Part shown: one piece after another, positions 31,821 through 41,725 of the stretch
Position numbering within the stretch: position 1 is the stretch's first letter
Layout of the letters: every line of letters starts with the position of its first letter
DNA from: Escherichia phage vB_EcoM_G2494
DNA length: 64,000 bases
Reading direction: 5' to 3' (one strand)
Sequence record: MK327935.1
The notes under the pieces: model-generated
Told to the model about the DNA's origin: nothing
Seen by the model: only the letters and a program-made list of their open reading frames with translations
Database searches by the model: none
Made by a program: the position numbers and the translations under genes

Positions 31821-33007
31821 AGATATTTCCCGAATCGGTTGTAGTCATCGTCTGTTAAATCGGTATTAACCTGAGATACCAGATACATGATCTCTACTTC
31901 TTGCGCCGCGTTTTGAACTTCGTCAGAGTTTAACCACTTACGCATCCACGGTAAAGGATGACGACGAACACTAAACGGGCTTTTCAGTCCGGCAGCACGC
32001 ATACGGGAATCTGCCAGGTATTCTACATAGGTTTTCAGAATTTCCGGTGACAGGTTAGGAATTGCCCCCATTGCGAATAGGTGGTCTACCCATTCTTTTT
32101 CTTGCTCGACAACATCCAGAAAGATTTTCGTTGCTTCGCCTTCAAGTTCTTCCGCAATCTGTTTCCACTCATCACCATCAACCCCAGTTTGCCATTGACG
32201 AATAATGTATTGTGTGCCTTTTAAGTGAAGTTGTTCATCACGCGCAATAAATTTCATGATCTTCGCGTTACCTTCCAGTAAACCACGTTCGGCAAAGCTG
32301 AAAGTACATGCAAAGGACACATAAAAACGGATTGCTTCCAGTGCATTTACGCAGTGTGCACACAGATAAATCGAAGCCATCAGATCTCGTTTTGTGTCTT
32401 CAAAAAATCTTCTTGCATCATCTAATTCTGTCTGATCGTCTCGTTCTTCCCAATAGTGGTGGAGAACTTCTTCTTCCCAATAGCGGAGATCTTCTTTTGC
32501 ATTCTCATACTTACGAATCCAATAGAGAACATCATCATAATATTTCCCGATAGATTCCGCTCGCTTCATGATAGAAGGGTTATCGATGATCTGGTCGAAC
32601 TCACTAGCAGGATCAATAAAACAGTTACGCATAATGTGTGTATAGCTTCTGCTATGAATCGTTTCGCTGAATGTCCATGTTTGCAACCATGTATCGAGAG
32701 TTGGATCAGATACAATTGGACCAAATACACGGGCTGGCGCTCTGCCTTGAATCGAATCTAGCAAAGTTTGATAACGTAAGTTCTCGGTGAAGAAACGCTT
32801 TTCAACATCGCTCATATTCAGATATTGAATGCGGTCAGTTGCAAGTGAAATCTCTTCTGGACGCCAGAAAAATGACAACTGCTTCTCGATCAACTCTTCA
32901 AATACTTGATGACGCTGAATATCATAACGGGCAATCCCTAAATCACTACCAAAAAACATCGGTTCGGTCATAATATCAACATGTTCACGATTAAATACGC
33001 TCATCAC
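31817..33007 (-). CDS. nrdB: ribonucleotide reductase small subunit
   Basis: 396 aa; diiron ligand region LEGEATKIFLD...; uninterrupted (no intron). Confidence 0.85.
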   Translation of the reverse strand: MMSVFNREHVDIMTEPMFFGSDLGIARYDIQRHQVFEELIEKQLSFFWRPEEISLATDRIQYLNMSDVEKRFFTENLRYQTLLDSIQGRAPARVFGPIVSDPTLDTWLQTWTFSETIHSRSYTHIMRNCFIDPASEFDQIIDNPSIMKRAESIGKYYDDVLYWIRKYENAKEDLRYWEEEVLHHYWEERDDQTELDDARRFFEDTKRDLMASIYLCAHCVNALEAIRFYVSFACTFSFAERGLLEGNAKIMKFIARDEQLHLKGTQYIIRQWQTGVDGDEWKQIAEELEGEATKIFLDVVEQEKEWVDHLFAMGAIPNLSPEILKTYVEYLADSRMRAAGLKSPFSVRRHPLPWMRKWLNSDEVQNAAQEVEIMYLVSQVNTDLTDDDYNRFGKYL

Positions 33008-33546
33008 TATTCTCCATCAATTTTGTTTATATTGTAGCCCATGTTGCCTTTTTCTATTTCTCTCAACGCAACTGAATTAAACGCTCTTGCCGCATCTTGT
33101 TCGCTATCAAATCTCCCTATATGAACACTCTTTCCTTGTATATTAATATGAACTAGCCATCTATTTGTGTACTTACACCAACTTACCCCGTTATATTTTG
33201 ATGATGCACCTTTAAATTTAGTTCTGTTTCTATTATTGACAGAATAATCAGTACCTCGTAAATTTTCTATATGATTGTTCAGCTTGTTTCGGTCGATGTG
33301 ATCTATAACTTTAGGCTTATGCCCGTGAAACATATGATAAATCACATGATGTATTAACTTCTTTCTATTGTCTACTGTTAGTTGAAGATATCCCCCATTA
33401 TGTGGACTTCCAACCTCATCACCAACTTTAACTTTATTGCTTGTTGAAACCTTTCTGAAAAGTTTACCATCTTCGTATTTAAATAGATAATGATACCTTT
33501 CGTAAAGTATTCGGTCCTCTTCCGTATAATGTATTACCTCATACAT
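33007..33546 (-). mobile_element. HNH-AP2 homing endonuclease (mobE position between nrdB and nrdA)
   Basis: HNH region HHVIYHMFHG...HIDRNKLNN plus AP2-like YNGVSWCKYTNRWLVHI...GRFDSEQDAARAFN. Confidence 0.7.
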
Positions 33547-36444: not shown

Positions 36445-37665
36445 TTATACTGCCATTTGAGCGGTGATCGCTGGATGGCTTTGATAGTTGTGAATTTTAA
36501 AGTCTTTCGGAGTCTTTGTCAATACCTCATCTAAAGATTTAAATTCCGGCAACTCAATTGTTGGTTTATCAAACGGAACACGGCTTAACTGTTCCATAAC
36601 TTGATCAAAGTGGTTTTTGTAAATGTGAGTATCTCCACCAGAGAAAATCAGTTCTCCTACCTCAAGATCACACATTTTCGCTATGATGTGAGTTAACAGC
36701 GCATAGCTGGCAACATTAAAGGGCAAGCCCAAAAAGCTGTCTACGCTTCGCTGAAACCACATACAAGACAGTTTACCTTCATTGACGTAGAATTGCACGA
36801 AAGGATGACATACACCTAATACAGCATTATGTGTTCCTTGTACGTTCCATGAGTCAATAATGATCCGGCGATCCGTTGGATTATTTTTAATTTGTTCAAT
36901 CACGTTTTGTAACTGGTCTTCCCAAATCTTCGGGCGATAGACATATTCTTCATCGTCTTTAGGGCTTGATGTGTCTACATCCATACTAACAAAGATCGTG
37001 GTATCAGGTGCTAAAATGTCACCGCCCAGATATTCATTATCAAACAGATAACCGAAATAACCATCATCTACCCATTCCTGGAATCCCCACAAGCAATATG
37101 CATCATTAACAAAATTAGATTGAGTCTTCCAGTGATCTGCTACCAGAATATAATCAAACTCTTCATAACGCATACCACGCCAGATAGCACATAAACGGTC
37201 TTCTGTTTCATTGGTTGGCGTAAAGTCTTCTACCCACGGGTGTTTAAATGTATGTGTATATTTGCTCTTAACGCGCTTAATTTTGATTTCACCGTGTGGA
37301 TGAATCGGTTTGCGTCGCCATGCCATACCATACATATTGCCGACATTATAACCATTGAATCGCAAAGGATTCTTTTCTTTCATATCAAGACAGTTGCCGC
37401 GCCAAATGTCGAAGGCTTCTTCGTCAAACTTACCGCGTGTAATTTCCTGTAAGCGACGGCGGTCAAGTGATCCCTCCATAAACCATAGCAATTCACCAAT
37501 TACAGAGGCTGTAGCCATCTTTTTAGTGGTCAGTAAGGGGAAACCCTTGCTTAAGTCAATTCGCATTTCTGCACCGAATTTAGAGAGCGTACCTATCCCC
37601 GTTCGGTCTTCACGAGGCCAGCCATTATCAAGAACATCACGCAACAGTTTCAAATATTCTTTCAT
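36445..37665 (-). CDS. td: thymidylate synthase with ~120-aa in-frame insertion
   Basis: ThyA motifs DRTGIGT, catalytic Cys in LGVCHPF, MWFQRSVDSFLGLPFN; 406 aa versus T4 Td 286 aa. Confidence 0.8.
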   Translation of the reverse strand: MKEYLKLLRDVLDNGWPREDRTGIGTLSKFGAEMRIDLSKGFPLLTTKKMATASVIGELLWFMEGSLDRRRLQEITRGKFDEEAFDIWRGNCLDMKEKNPLRFNGYNVGNMYGMAWRRKPIHPHGEIKIKRVKSKYTHTFKHPWVEDFTPTNETEDRLCAIWRGMRYEEFDYILVADHWKTQSNFVNDAYCLWGFQEWVDDGYFGYLFDNEYLGGDILAPDTTIFVSMDVDTSSPKDDEEYVYRPKIWEDQLQNVIEQIKNNPTDRRIIIDSWNVQGTHNAVLGVCHPFVQFYVNEGKLSCMWFQRSVDSFLGLPFNVASYALLTHIIAKMCDLEVGELIFSGGDTHIYKNHFDQVMEQLSRVPFDKPTIELPEFKSLDEVLTKTPKDFKIHNYQSHPAITAQMAV

Positions 37666-38596: not shown

Positions 38597-38926
38597 TCAA
38601 ATCAGTTTGAAATAGTTTTCATTTACATTTTCTTCTGTGATTGCTGTCTTAAATTCTTGACCGTTATCCGGTGTGATGAAATAACGGTCTGAATAATCAC
38701 GAAAACGTTTTAAGTGAGATACCCCAACATTAACACCATGTTCCCAAAAACGAAAGGTAATCATTTTTGGTTCATATCGATAGTCGCTGGTCAACACAGT
38801 ACCATCACCGCGACGGGCTTCATAAACCGTAATACATTCACGATTGGCGGCTTTTAGGCATTCTTCAATAGTGCCGCACGAGATAATACTTACTTTTTCA
38901 TCTACGATTTGTTCTACAGTCCACAT
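38597..38926 (-). CDS. hypothetical protein (109 aa)
   Basis: ORF downstream of frd. Confidence 0.5.
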   Translation of the reverse strand: MWTVEQIVDEKVSIISCGTIEECLKAANRECITVYEARRGDGTVLTSDYRYEPKMITFRFWEHGVNVGVSHLKRFRDYSDRYFITPDNGQEFKTAITEENVNENYFKLI

Positions 38927-38981
38927 AATATAATCCTCTCTTTGTTTCGATGTTTGTATTATACATCATCTGTGTTCGGCG

Positions 38982-39311
38982 TCAACCTTTTTGTTCCATG
39001 AAAAGCGGTGCTGTTTCTTCTTTCAGTTTAATAACTAGCGCGGAAACTTCATCAAGAAAATCTTTTTCCATATGAGCAAGCATTGATTTAGAATCTTTGA
39101 TGACTTTCAAAGAATATTCACTTAGATTTCCTTTTCCTAACAATAATGCAGGATACACACTATGTGGGATCTCGATTTCATGATATTCACTCATAGTATA
39201 ATATTTGTGAATTTTTAAATCTATATTTCTTCGTTGTACGTCTACATCAGCAATGACATACAGACGTTCGATTTTATCACTTTTTTGAGAAAGGGTAGCA
39301 TTCAAAAACAT
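38982..39311 (-). CDS. hypothetical protein (109 aa)
   Basis: ORF with cassette promoter upstream. Confidence 0.5.
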   Translation of the reverse strand: MFLNATLSQKSDKIERLYVIADVDVQRRNIDLKIHKYYTMSEYHEIEIPHSVYPALLLGKGNLSEYSLKVIKDSKSMLAHMEKDFLDEVSALVIKLKEETAPLFMEQKG

Positions 39312-39429: not shown

Positions 39430-40404
39430 TTACATCCCTAACAGAGCGTCAAGATCATCCAGATCAGAAGCGGAGGAAGTACCGCCACCCAGATCCAGCG
39501 ATGCCATCAGGTCATCAGCGGAAGAATCTAACGCCGTGCTAGCTGCGTTAATACCAACTACAGTGCTAGCTGCGTTAATACCAGCATCGAATGCATTCAT
39601 CTGTGCGTCAAAATCGTCAAGCTGGCTGTTAATCGCTGCCGCAGCACTGAAAGCCACAGCACCAGCTACCATAGAAACGCCCATAGTTTTCTTAAATTTG
39701 GTTTCCAGTTCATCGAACGGTTTAAACTGGCTAGGTGCTACAATCTCACTCAGATCAACCATGTTTTCCATCAGATATTTCTGATATGCTTCGTCTTCAA
39801 TTTTCGGAAGCTGTGATTGCTGCATGAAACGAGAATCATCATAGTTCTGGTGTTTATCAACCTTCTTAGCTTTCAGGAGGAAGTTAGCACCGGAGAACAC
39901 ACAAGTTACATCTACCGGAACTTCGCCCATGTCGGTATTCACGTTCACCATTGCAACGATCTTATCATAAATTTTCTGACCGAAGCGGAATTTGAATACC
40001 TTACCTTCATTTTCTGGTGCTTGAGGATCTTTCAGTACCAGAATATTTGCGTAGTAAGACGCTTTACGCTTAATCAGTTGCCATTCGGTTTTATCGGTAT
40101 TGTACAGGTCTTTTTCGTTAATATATTTGCACACAGGGCAAGAATCAAAATCACCGTGGGTGCTGGAGCAGTTTTCCCAATACCATTTGCCATTAACTTT
40201 GAAGGAATGGTTTACCAGTTTCACAATCGGCAGACCGTCTTCTGTCTTAGGCGGCAGGAAGCGAATCAGGGCTTCACCGTTACCTGCTGCATCAGTCTTA
40301 ATCTTCCACTCTTTCGGATCTTCTTTGGAGAAACCGTTGCCACCTTTCAGTGCGGCCAGTTGAGCTTGCAGTTTGGAGCTATCTTGACGACGAAACATGT
40401 TCAT
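39430..40404 (-). CDS. 32: single-stranded DNA-binding protein gp32
   Basis: KGGNGFSKEDPKEWKIK, GNGEALIRFLP, CSSTHGDFDSCPVCKY Zn site match T4 gp32. Confidence 0.9.
   Translation of the reverse strand: MNMFRRQDSSKLQAQLAALKGGNGFSKEDPKEWKIKTDAAGNGEALIRFLPPKTEDGLPIVKLVNHSFKVNGKWYWENCSSTHGDFDSCPVCKYINEKDLYNTDKTEWQLIKRKASYYANILVLKDPQAPENEGKVFKFRFGQKIYDKIVAMVNVNTDMGEVPVDVTCVFSGANFLLKAKKVDKHQNYDDSRFMQQSQLPKIEDEAYQKYLMENMVDLSEIVAPSQFKPFDELETKFKKTMGVSMVAGAVAFSAAAAINSQLDDFDAQMNAFDAGINAASTVVGINAASTALDSSADDLMASLDLGGGTSSASDLDDLDALLGM
39536..39589. repeat. in-frame 27-bp tandem duplication within gene 32 C-terminal region
   Basis: GTGCTAGCTGCGTTAATACCA repeated with 27-bp period (encodes GINAAST twice). 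Confidence 0.8.
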
Positions 40405-40464
40405 AATTATACCTCTTTATACATTAACTATTGATTAATTTACGTTTTATACTATATCAGATAC

Positions 40465-41061
40465 TTAATTGCTTGTCAATACTTTATCAATTATATCTAA
40501 CAGTTTTGGCTTTCTATTTTCAAATTCTAACATCTCTTCGGGAGAAATGTCAACTACTTCTGTTTTGTTGAAAAAGTTTGGGTCTATAGCATCAGCAACA
40601 AAGTTTCTCGCAAGTGCTGCCGCTTTCTCATGAACATATATTCCCAAATATATCAACTTCTTTCTTTCGACCTGAATATTGGCAACATATTTACCATCTC
40701 GTTTATAAAGACTAACACCGATATATTCAGACGATCGACCTTTCTGTTTACCCATATTTCTTGAGTTTTGTTGCTCGTTCGCATCTCTCAAGTTTTCAAT
40801 CCGATTATCTGTTATAATTCGGTTAACATGGTCAACGTATTTTGGCATGTATCCATGATGCATAAAGAAAATTATTCTATGCTCTTTATGATGTTTACCA
40901 TCGATACACACCAATCTGTATCCATGACTAGGATTAACTCCACCCGCTCTAGATCCGACTTTATGCTTTCTGTTTGTCGATATCTTGCGAATCAGCTTAC
41001 CGTTATCATATTTAAAGAGTTCATGACAACGAGCATACAATTCAGGATCATATGTTTTCAC
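40465..41061 (-). mobile_element. HNH-AP2 homing endonuclease between genes 32 and 59
   Basis: HNH region HRIIFFMHHG...HVNRIITDN plus AP2-like EYIGVSLYKRDGKYVANI...GIYVHEKAAALARN. Confidence 0.7.
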
Positions 41062-41725
41062 CTTTTAACCTCGATATTTCTTTACACTCTTTAACTACTT
41101 TAACAAATAATGCTCTTGCTTTTGCGGCGTCAATAACAAGTAGTTTCTTGTACGCCTTCATTTTAACACTATAAGTTTGCCAAATCAAGTCTTTGGCTAC
41201 CTTGTCGTGTTCGTCGATTATATTTAGAAAGCTATCTAACAACATAAACGACTCAAACGATATAATCCGATTTTGCAGTAGTTTAAAGATACCGCTAGTT
41301 TCGGTTGCGGGATTGTATGTAATTAGCTCTTTAAGAGTAACCCCGCGTTTCTCGGAGAAGTATACCAGACTTTTAATGTCATCGTCAAATCGTGTTGCTG
41401 CATCGGTTATCTTTCCTATGTATTCCATATAAAAGCCGTATGCGTCAACATCAGTGATTTCACCTACCCATGCATCGGTATTAGCTACCAGATTGCTTAG
41501 GAATAGGAAGTATAATTCTCTTAGATTGTACTTTTCCGCTAATTTTGCGAAATAATACTTATCTCTGCGTTTATTGAATGCGGCATCAGACAACCGCATC
41601 CTCCAATTGTATTTTACGCAATCATAACGCCCGTTCATATGAGCTTTCATCATGCAATATAACATATACACAGATTTAGCATTAATTCGCATATCTGGTT
41701 CTGGAGGAAGACGGTTTCTGATCAT
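41048..41725 (-). CDS. 59: helicase loader gp59
   Basis: KSVYMLYCMMKAHMNGRYDCVKYNWRMRLSDAAFNKRRDKYYF matches T4 gp59. Confidence 0.9.
   Translation of the reverse strand: MIRNRLPPEPDMRINAKSVYMLYCMMKAHMNGRYDCVKYNWRMRLSDAAFNKRRDKYYFAKLAEKYNLRELYFLFLSNLVANTDAWVGEITDVDAYGFYMEYIGKITDAATRFDDDIKSLVYFSEKRGVTLKELITYNPATETSGIFKLLQNRIISFESFMLLDSFLNIIDEHDKVAKDLIWQTYSVKMKAYKKLLVIDAAKARALFVKVVKECKEISRLKGENI

Follow-up and report, generated by a model that had tools for sequence, protein, structure and literature searches.

The open reading frame (ORF) between genes 59 and 32 of Escherichia phage vB_EcoM_G2494 (MK327935.1) is best read, with a probability of roughly 0.8, as a free-standing HNH-AP2 homing endonuclease gene that was inserted right at the 3' end of gene 59 and is carried by a minority of Krischvirus phages. 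Judging by the features described below, the gene is intact and probably active. Coordinates refer to the window, i.e. the whole 64,000-nt stretch of phage DNA that was analysed, and are collected in Table 1.

Gene neighbourhood and protein architecture

The ORF occupies positions 40465..41061 of the − strand, exactly where the first-pass annotation had placed it, and encodes 198 aa between a GTG start and a TAA stop. The GTG is the earliest possible start past an in-frame TAA and has a GAGG ribosome-binding site 7 nt on its 5' side. The same or a nearly identical ORF with the same start is annotated in the GenBank records of MIZ4, Skers and Makalu_002, where it is labeled either 'HNH endonuclease' or 'putative HNH homing endonuclease'. 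The 59-32 region as a whole is up to 98.7% identical to that of Krischvirus phages, T4-type coliphages of the RB49/Phi1/JSE group. All genes here lie on the − strand, in the order rnh – dsbA – 33 – 59 – ORF – 32 – two small ORFs – frd – td, and the ORF has the orientation of both its neighbours. Its first 14 nt lie within gene 59, and 60 nt separate it from gene 32. An RNA hairpin masking the ribosome-binding site and start, as in some T4 endonuclease genes, was looked for and not supported (MFE −12.7 kcal/mol, z=+1.2).

Table 1. Coordinates of the features discussed in the text
Feature	Position in window	Strand	Evidence or remarks
Gene 59 (helicase loader), upstream neighbour	41048..41725	−	Pfam T4_Gp59_N, T4_Gp59_C (4e-41 and 6e-29)
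Gene 32 (ssDNA-binding protein), downstream neighbour	39430..40404	−	Pfam gp32 4.3e-51
HNH_3 (I-HmuI-type ββα-Me) nuclease domain, residues 61-101	40759..40881	−	Pfam E=2.2e-11, above curated cut-off
AP2 DNA-binding domain, residues 112-153	40603..40728	−	Pfam E=7.4e-5 and family profile
Long C-terminal helix, residues 174-197	40471..40542	−	Alignment and AlphaFold secondary structure
Carrier-only block, ~594 nt	40480..41073	−	Junctions vs JSE, Phi1, RB49, GEC-3S, MIZ6, ELT3, phiS
Remodelled gene 59 3' end	41048..41073	−	Holds GAGG (41069-41072) and GTG (41059-41061) of the endonuclease
Gene-32 promoter-like site TTGACA-17-TATAGT	40451..40479	−	Scan, 11/12
Second promoter-like site TTGACA-18-TAGAAT, extended TG, in 3' part of ORF	40524..40553	−	Scan; consensus match only
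Weaker promoter matches in gene 59	41188..41160 (9/12); 41388..41359 (10/12)	−	Consensus scan
39-nt segment 3' of the −35 box, private to type-A carriers including the window	40433..40471	−	Genome comparison
Diversity trough	41304..40505		Six type-A genomes
Gene 32 start/leader	40383..40432	−	Two 5' alleles
Gene 32 C-terminal region	~39500..39620	−	Short repeat
frd-32 interval	38597..39311	−	109-aa ORFs in the window
Thymidylate synthase	36445..37665	−	406 aa
Adjacent ORFs of 55 and 57 aa	33557..33897	−	Between the other HNH-AP2 gene and nrdA
Other HNH-AP2 gene, 179 aa, between nrdB and nrdA	33007..33546	−	HNH_3 + AP2 architecture
Third HNH endonuclease ORF, 205 aa	25295..25912	−	phrog_59, 1.4e-35

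The best PHROG match of the 198-aa protein is phrog_99, 'HNH endonuclease' (E=1.5e-50). For a closer look at its domains we used a family alignment and profile of 40 sequences, the protein itself and 39 relatives retrieved from a search of 5.8 billion proteins. The family profile matches I-HmuI (PDB 1u3e) with E=1.5e-7 over the HNH core and the preceding β-hairpin, and the motif of the family aligns with 'VVDHKDGNKDNN...NLR' of I-HmuI. Taken alone, the Pfam match to AP2 scores 23.4 bits, under the curated cut-off of 33.3 bits; comparison of the family profile with the plant AP2 structures WRI1 (4.5e-9) and TEM1 (1.7e-5) confirmed the AP2 domain, which sits C-terminal to the HNH domain. Residues D77, H78, N86, E89, N90, R92 and N102 are invariant in the 40-sequence alignment, and at least 90% of the sequences retain N99. 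The catalytic motif of the subgroup, an Asp-His general-base pair plus the conserved Asn residues of the ββα-metal fold, is complete. The first-pass annotation had named missing catalytic HNH residues as the observation that would count against it; since the alignment has all of them in place, this objection falls away. The protein also has the ββα fold that defines the HNH_3/I-HmuI subgroup. From these features we infer an HNH endonuclease of that subgroup, with a presumed nuclease activity and DNA target.

The overall layout is thus an N-terminal β-hairpin region, an I-HmuI-type HNH domain, the AP2 domain and a lineage-specific C-terminal helix. The helix belongs to an extension of ~40 aa (residues ~160-198) that other family members do not have. 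The nearest relatives outside Krischvirus are at most 49% identical to the protein. The nearest metagenomic ones (43-49% identity) reside in unrelated phage-like contigs and therefore say nothing about the donor.

AP2 domains also occur in transcription regulators of plants and in the phage CasPR anti-CRISPRs (bioRxiv 10.64898/2026.02.23.707548), and the allele found in E26 and 011D4 is labeled a 'Fis family transcriptional regulator'. It might be argued, then, that the protein is an AP2-based sequence-specific DNA-binding regulator without any nuclease role, which might, for example, modulate the expression of gene 32 or 59 or, like CasPR, silence a host or competitor gene. We regard this as very improbable. 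CasPRs consist of CapR and AP2, lack HNH and come from Bacillota phages (bioRxiv 10.64898/2026.02.23.707548), whereas the HNH motif considered here is complete and does not vary among the 40 family members. The Fis label itself was rejected, as it is not supported by any domain search and Pfam reveals no Fis-like domain.

Occurrence, boundaries and alleles of the gene in Krischvirus

To see how the homing endonuclease gene is distributed, we considered ~58 Krischvirus phage records, defined as those with gp59 at 95% identity or more to that of the window, and counted a record as a carrier if it covered at least 80% of a 59-HNH-32 query. The ORF is present in 11 of them. The non-carriers align to the query in two pieces (72-74% coverage), and in RB49, Phi1, JSE and GEC-3S the site is empty, with gene 59 directly adjoining gene 32. 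Presence and absence with exact boundaries are thus seen among otherwise near-identical genomes.

This distribution bears on another possible function. In some phages HNH proteins help the terminase, and HNH proteins encoded beside terminases act in packaging in cos-type phages. An accessory role in DNA packaging, or some other housekeeping nuclease role, is nevertheless scarcely credible for the present gene. It is located in the replication cluster and not beside the terminase genes, and its absence from ~80% of Krischvirus genomes means that it is dispensable; phages with naturally empty sites are viable. In addition, the family combines an I-HmuI-like HNH_3 domain with AP2, i.e. it is of the homing class.

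Comparison of carriers with empty-site genomes defined the boundaries of the insert. The carrier-only block of ~594 nt stands in place of the final 25 nt of empty-site gene 59 (CTCAATTAAAAGCCGAAACAAATAG). In empty genomes the end of gene 59 reads …GAAATAT CTCAATTAAAAGCCGAAACAAATAG TTGACAAG…, whereas the carrier block starts with CGAGGTTAAAAGGTGAAAAC, which supplies the endonuclease start codon and ribosome-binding site along with a new end for gp59, and extends to the same TTGACAAG. As a result, gp59 ends in ...SRLKGENI* in carriers and in ...SQLK(A/T)ETNS* otherwise. This remodelled tail is the sole flanking sequence strictly linked to the presence of the endonuclease gene. The backbone around the site is extremely mosaic, and no SNP column splits carriers from non-carriers within 2.2 kb upstream and 1.1 kb downstream. 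Over these same intervals, neither a co-conversion tract nor an immunity SNP common to all carriers was found in gene 59 or 32. We also considered the 5' end that gene 32 has in the window (MNMFRRQ with its own ribosome-binding site) as a part of the element. However, ELT3 and phiS share it despite their empty sites, which makes it an independent polymorphism. Gene 32 has two 5' alleles, MNMFRRQ… and MFKRQ…, the former preceded by an AT-rich leader and a ribosome-binding site of its own; they may matter for translational autoregulation of gp32.

At the 3' end of the insert, the TTGACA that directly follows the carrier block is the −35 box of the gene-32 promoter, and so the last sense codons of the endonuclease ORF form part of this promoter; a matching TTGACA...TATAAT is annotated as a promoter in GEC-3S. 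A scan directly 5' of the endonuclease start gave no strong (≥11/12) match, and the weaker matches lie within gene 59, 127 and 327 nt 5' of the start. Because the GTG and the GAGG are both inside the rewritten last 25 nt of gene 59, the arrangement suggests that the endonuclease gene is co-transcribed, and possibly translationally coupled, with gene 59.

For the population comparison 15 genomes were used out of the ~58. The carriers fall into two allelic types. Type A is found in the window phage, MIZ4/5, Skers, Cognac, ELT4, kvi, FL20, pEJ01 and Makalu_002, and type B in E26 and 011D4. Each type spans Krischvirus species: of the type-A phages, kvi is assigned to species RB49 and Makalu_002 to species gec3s, and of the type-B phages, 011D4 is assigned to RB49 and E26 to gec3s. 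The type strains of both species (RB49 and GEC-3S) are empty. The two proteins are 85% identical, and their genes differ with dN=0.10 and dS=0.71 (ω≈0.14). The divergence is uneven: dS reaches ≈1.25 in the central part, but the alleles are almost identical over ~105 nt at the 5' end and ~100 nt at the 3' end. Amino acid changes cluster at positions 41-57 (the N-terminal hairpin) and 118-144 (the AP2 sheet) and spare the HNH core. The pattern is that of two diverged endonuclease alleles under purifying selection. Among six type-A genomes, nucleotide diversity (π) is 0.006 in the endonuclease gene, 0.018 in gene 59 and 0.029 in gene 32, so that diversity dips to a trough at the gene; the surrounding background is highly mosaic. 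These allele and diversity features fit a functional, recently spread gene; they are not in themselves proof of homing.

One alternative deserves more attention than the others. The gene might encode an endonuclease that has been retired or domesticated and has lost homing, the gene being kept for the gene-32 promoter(s) in its 3' end and its patchiness being produced by ordinary recombination among co-infecting Krischviruses. Promoter-like sites within and at the end of the ORF, the extremely mosaic flanks and the lack of a flank SNP linked to the gene are all in agreement with this. However, a dN/dS of ≈0.14 over the full length of the protein and a strictly conserved catalytic motif show that selection acts on the protein as well, beyond the ~90 nt of promoter DNA. 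Moreover, empty sites have a functional promoter without the gene, and diversity is lowest over the gene. We therefore consider this alternative unlikely. As for the spread of the gene, the flanks contain no visible co-conversion tract common to all carriers, and ordinary recombination could also have distributed it.

If the gene is indeed a homing endonuclease gene, its propagation would proceed as follows. When a carrier and an empty-site phage infect the same cell, the enzyme would nick or cut the empty allele, most likely at the gene 59 tail, that is, at the insertion point. The cut is placed there because no other flank sequence is linked to the gene. The recognition site presumably spans the insertion point, as in classical homing, and cleavage is predicted within ~30 bp of the gene 59 stop (…GAAATATCTCAATTAAAAGCCGAAACAAATAGTTGACAAG…). 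Recombination-dependent repair of the T4 type would then copy the gene with a short flank into the recipient. Once in place, the embedded promoter of the essential gene 32 would make clean deletion costly, as described for T4 segG. Our literature search found no paper on the 198-aa protein, nor biochemical or genetic evidence of its cleavage or homing.

The nrdB-nrdA copy and other features of the window

The window contains another HNH-AP2 gene, located between nrdB and nrdA and separated from nrdA by three small ORFs. The first-pass annotation had pointed out the similar architecture of the two, and this is borne out: both have HNH_3 followed by AP2, and the proteins are 41% identical over 152 aa. 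It had further suggested that the two copies provide dispersed homology for recombination and had proposed an alignment of the proteins and their flanking DNA as a check. The outcome of the alignment does not agree with this suggestion. The genes are 56% identical at the nucleotide level, no exact match between them exceeds 11 nt, a length also reached in the opposite-strand control and hence at chance level, and their flanks share nothing. With such values recombination homology is not possible. Sequence comparison identifies the nrdB-nrdA gene as a paralogue of the 59/32 gene, not a DNA repeat. It is also the rarer one, being found in 2/58 Krischvirus records, and the two genes assort independently across the 58 records. 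One of the two records, vB_EcoM_G5211, has a 100% identical nrdB-nrdA copy and an empty 59/32 site.

Several other features of the window and of related genomes were noted in the course of the analysis. Other Krischvirus records have different inserts at the nrdB-nrdA junction. The adjacent ORFs of 55 and 57 aa (MATLWLLLSVS… and MATVWLLIAIS…) resemble a tandem duplication. The third HNH endonuclease ORF of the window is without AP2. In thymidylate synthase the Pfam match is split into two separate stretches, which points to an in-frame insertion of ~120 aa relative to an ordinary enzyme; td of JSE has the same length.

The frd-32 interval is another hot spot, with pairwise diversity of ~0.4. 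A 1.2-1.4 kb gene is present there in Skers, GEC-3S, Cognac, phiS and Phi1; the records of Skers, GEC-3S and Phi1 label its product a GIY-YIG/endonuclease, those of Cognac and phiS a hypothetical protein. The C-terminal region of gene 32 encodes a short repeat (…INAASTVVGINAASTALD…), from which 27 nt are missing in 011D4 and in phiS, indicating that the acidic tail of gp32 contains a repeat prone to indels.

Comparison with T4 segG and related endonucleases

According to the first-pass annotation, the same junction is occupied in T4 by segG, a GIY-YIG enzyme gene. Both the RefSeq annotation of T4 (59, 148543-149196; SegG, 147909-148541; 32, 146948-147853) and a review (PMC2988022) agree. Pfam gives no match for T4 SegG at E≤0.01; its assignment to GIY-YIG is based on RefSeq, on the review and on an IVY...YIG motif visible in the sequence. 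The two genes are placed alike. They share the junction and the orientation, and segG is separated from the gene 59 stop by 1 nt and from gene 32 by 55 nt, compared with the 14-nt overlap and 60-nt gap of the Krischvirus gene. Like the HNH-AP2 gene, segG is absent from close relatives. It has been described as a promoter-less cassette located between 59 and 32, with gene-32 promoters embedded in its 3' part (PMC2988022), and the embedded gene-32 promoter is common to both genes. In contrast, the proteins are unrelated (BLASTP E=11; PHROG 7504/314 for SegG vs 99). The HNH-AP2 protein is not a Seg protein, as it has neither a GIY-YIG domain nor homology to SegG. The targets may differ as well: the review gives gene 32 as the target of SegG, and the title of its SegG reference speaks of a 'distant cleavage site' (PMC2988022), whereas for the Krischvirus gene, whose carrier-linked sequence is confined to the gene 59 tail, the insertion point is the suggested target.

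Gene 59 directly adjoins gene 32 in the sampled Winklervirus, Lazarusvirus and Mosigvirus and in the unclassified Klebsiella T4-type phage phi1_146010. With the site empty in these sampled phages and in most Krischvirus phages, and with SegG unrelated to the HNH-AP2 protein, independent GIY-YIG and HNH-AP2 fillings are supported, as the first-pass annotation had proposed. In the Mosigvirus Shigella phage SHSML-52-1 a seg-like gene (L020 1525..2208; phrog_314, 4.5e-55) is present between 33 and 59, one junction upstream of the 59/32 site.

The parallel with segG is thus correct, and the principle that one site may be taken by different families is already established. The documented case is mobE/hef at nrdB (PMC2988022): T4 MobE and Hef of phage U5 (nrdA/nrdB junction) are a precedent for different families that occupy or target one locus in T4-type phages. 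Their locus differs from the 59/32 site; the other HNH-AP2 copy of the window sits at nrdB-nrdA. A bolder reading, which we put forward only tentatively and which is more likely wrong than right, takes the gene 59 stop and the gene-32 promoter as a convergent landing pad. Here GIY-YIG genes in T4 and HNH-AP2 genes in Krischvirus would have inserted at one position, matching to the nucleotide level, and each would have captured the promoter of the essential gene 32 and thereby become hard to delete. Types A and B might then represent a natural switch in specificity, given that their ends are nearly identical, their centres have diverged (dS≈1.25) and the changes are concentrated in two DNA-binding modules; type A may have co-evolved with its private 39-nt segment.

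If our main reading is true, the 59/32 gene adds one more uncharacterised, probably active HNH-AP2 homing endonuclease, whose empty target is well defined, the site being intact in many sequenced Krischvirus genomes. It would also provide a clean natural case of two unrelated endonuclease families at the 59/32 junction in different T4-type genera, and the A/B allele pair could help to study how the specificity of HNH-AP2 enzymes evolves. The general view of phage mobile elements would stay unchanged; several GenBank records already label the gene an HNH (homing) endonuclease.

The HNH-AP2 class was defined by Magnani et al. 2004, as cited in PMC2993671, and has already been recognised in RB49, RB43 and JSE (PMC1524935; PMC2993671). 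RB49ORF040c, RB43ORF027c, the JSE copies and IPA-HNH of ICP1 all have the same order of domains as the 59/32 protein, with HNH_3 at the N-terminus and AP2 at the C-terminus. They also share its small size, free-standing position and sporadic distribution. They differ in being located at other genomic sites, and the extra C-terminal helix of ~40 aa is found only in the 59/32 protein. I-HmuI of SPO1 (PDB 1U3E), an HNH nicking endonuclease, shows 19% identity. It is encoded within an intron, whereas the 59/32 gene is free-standing, and it uses a C-terminal helix-turn-helix module where the 59/32 protein has AP2.
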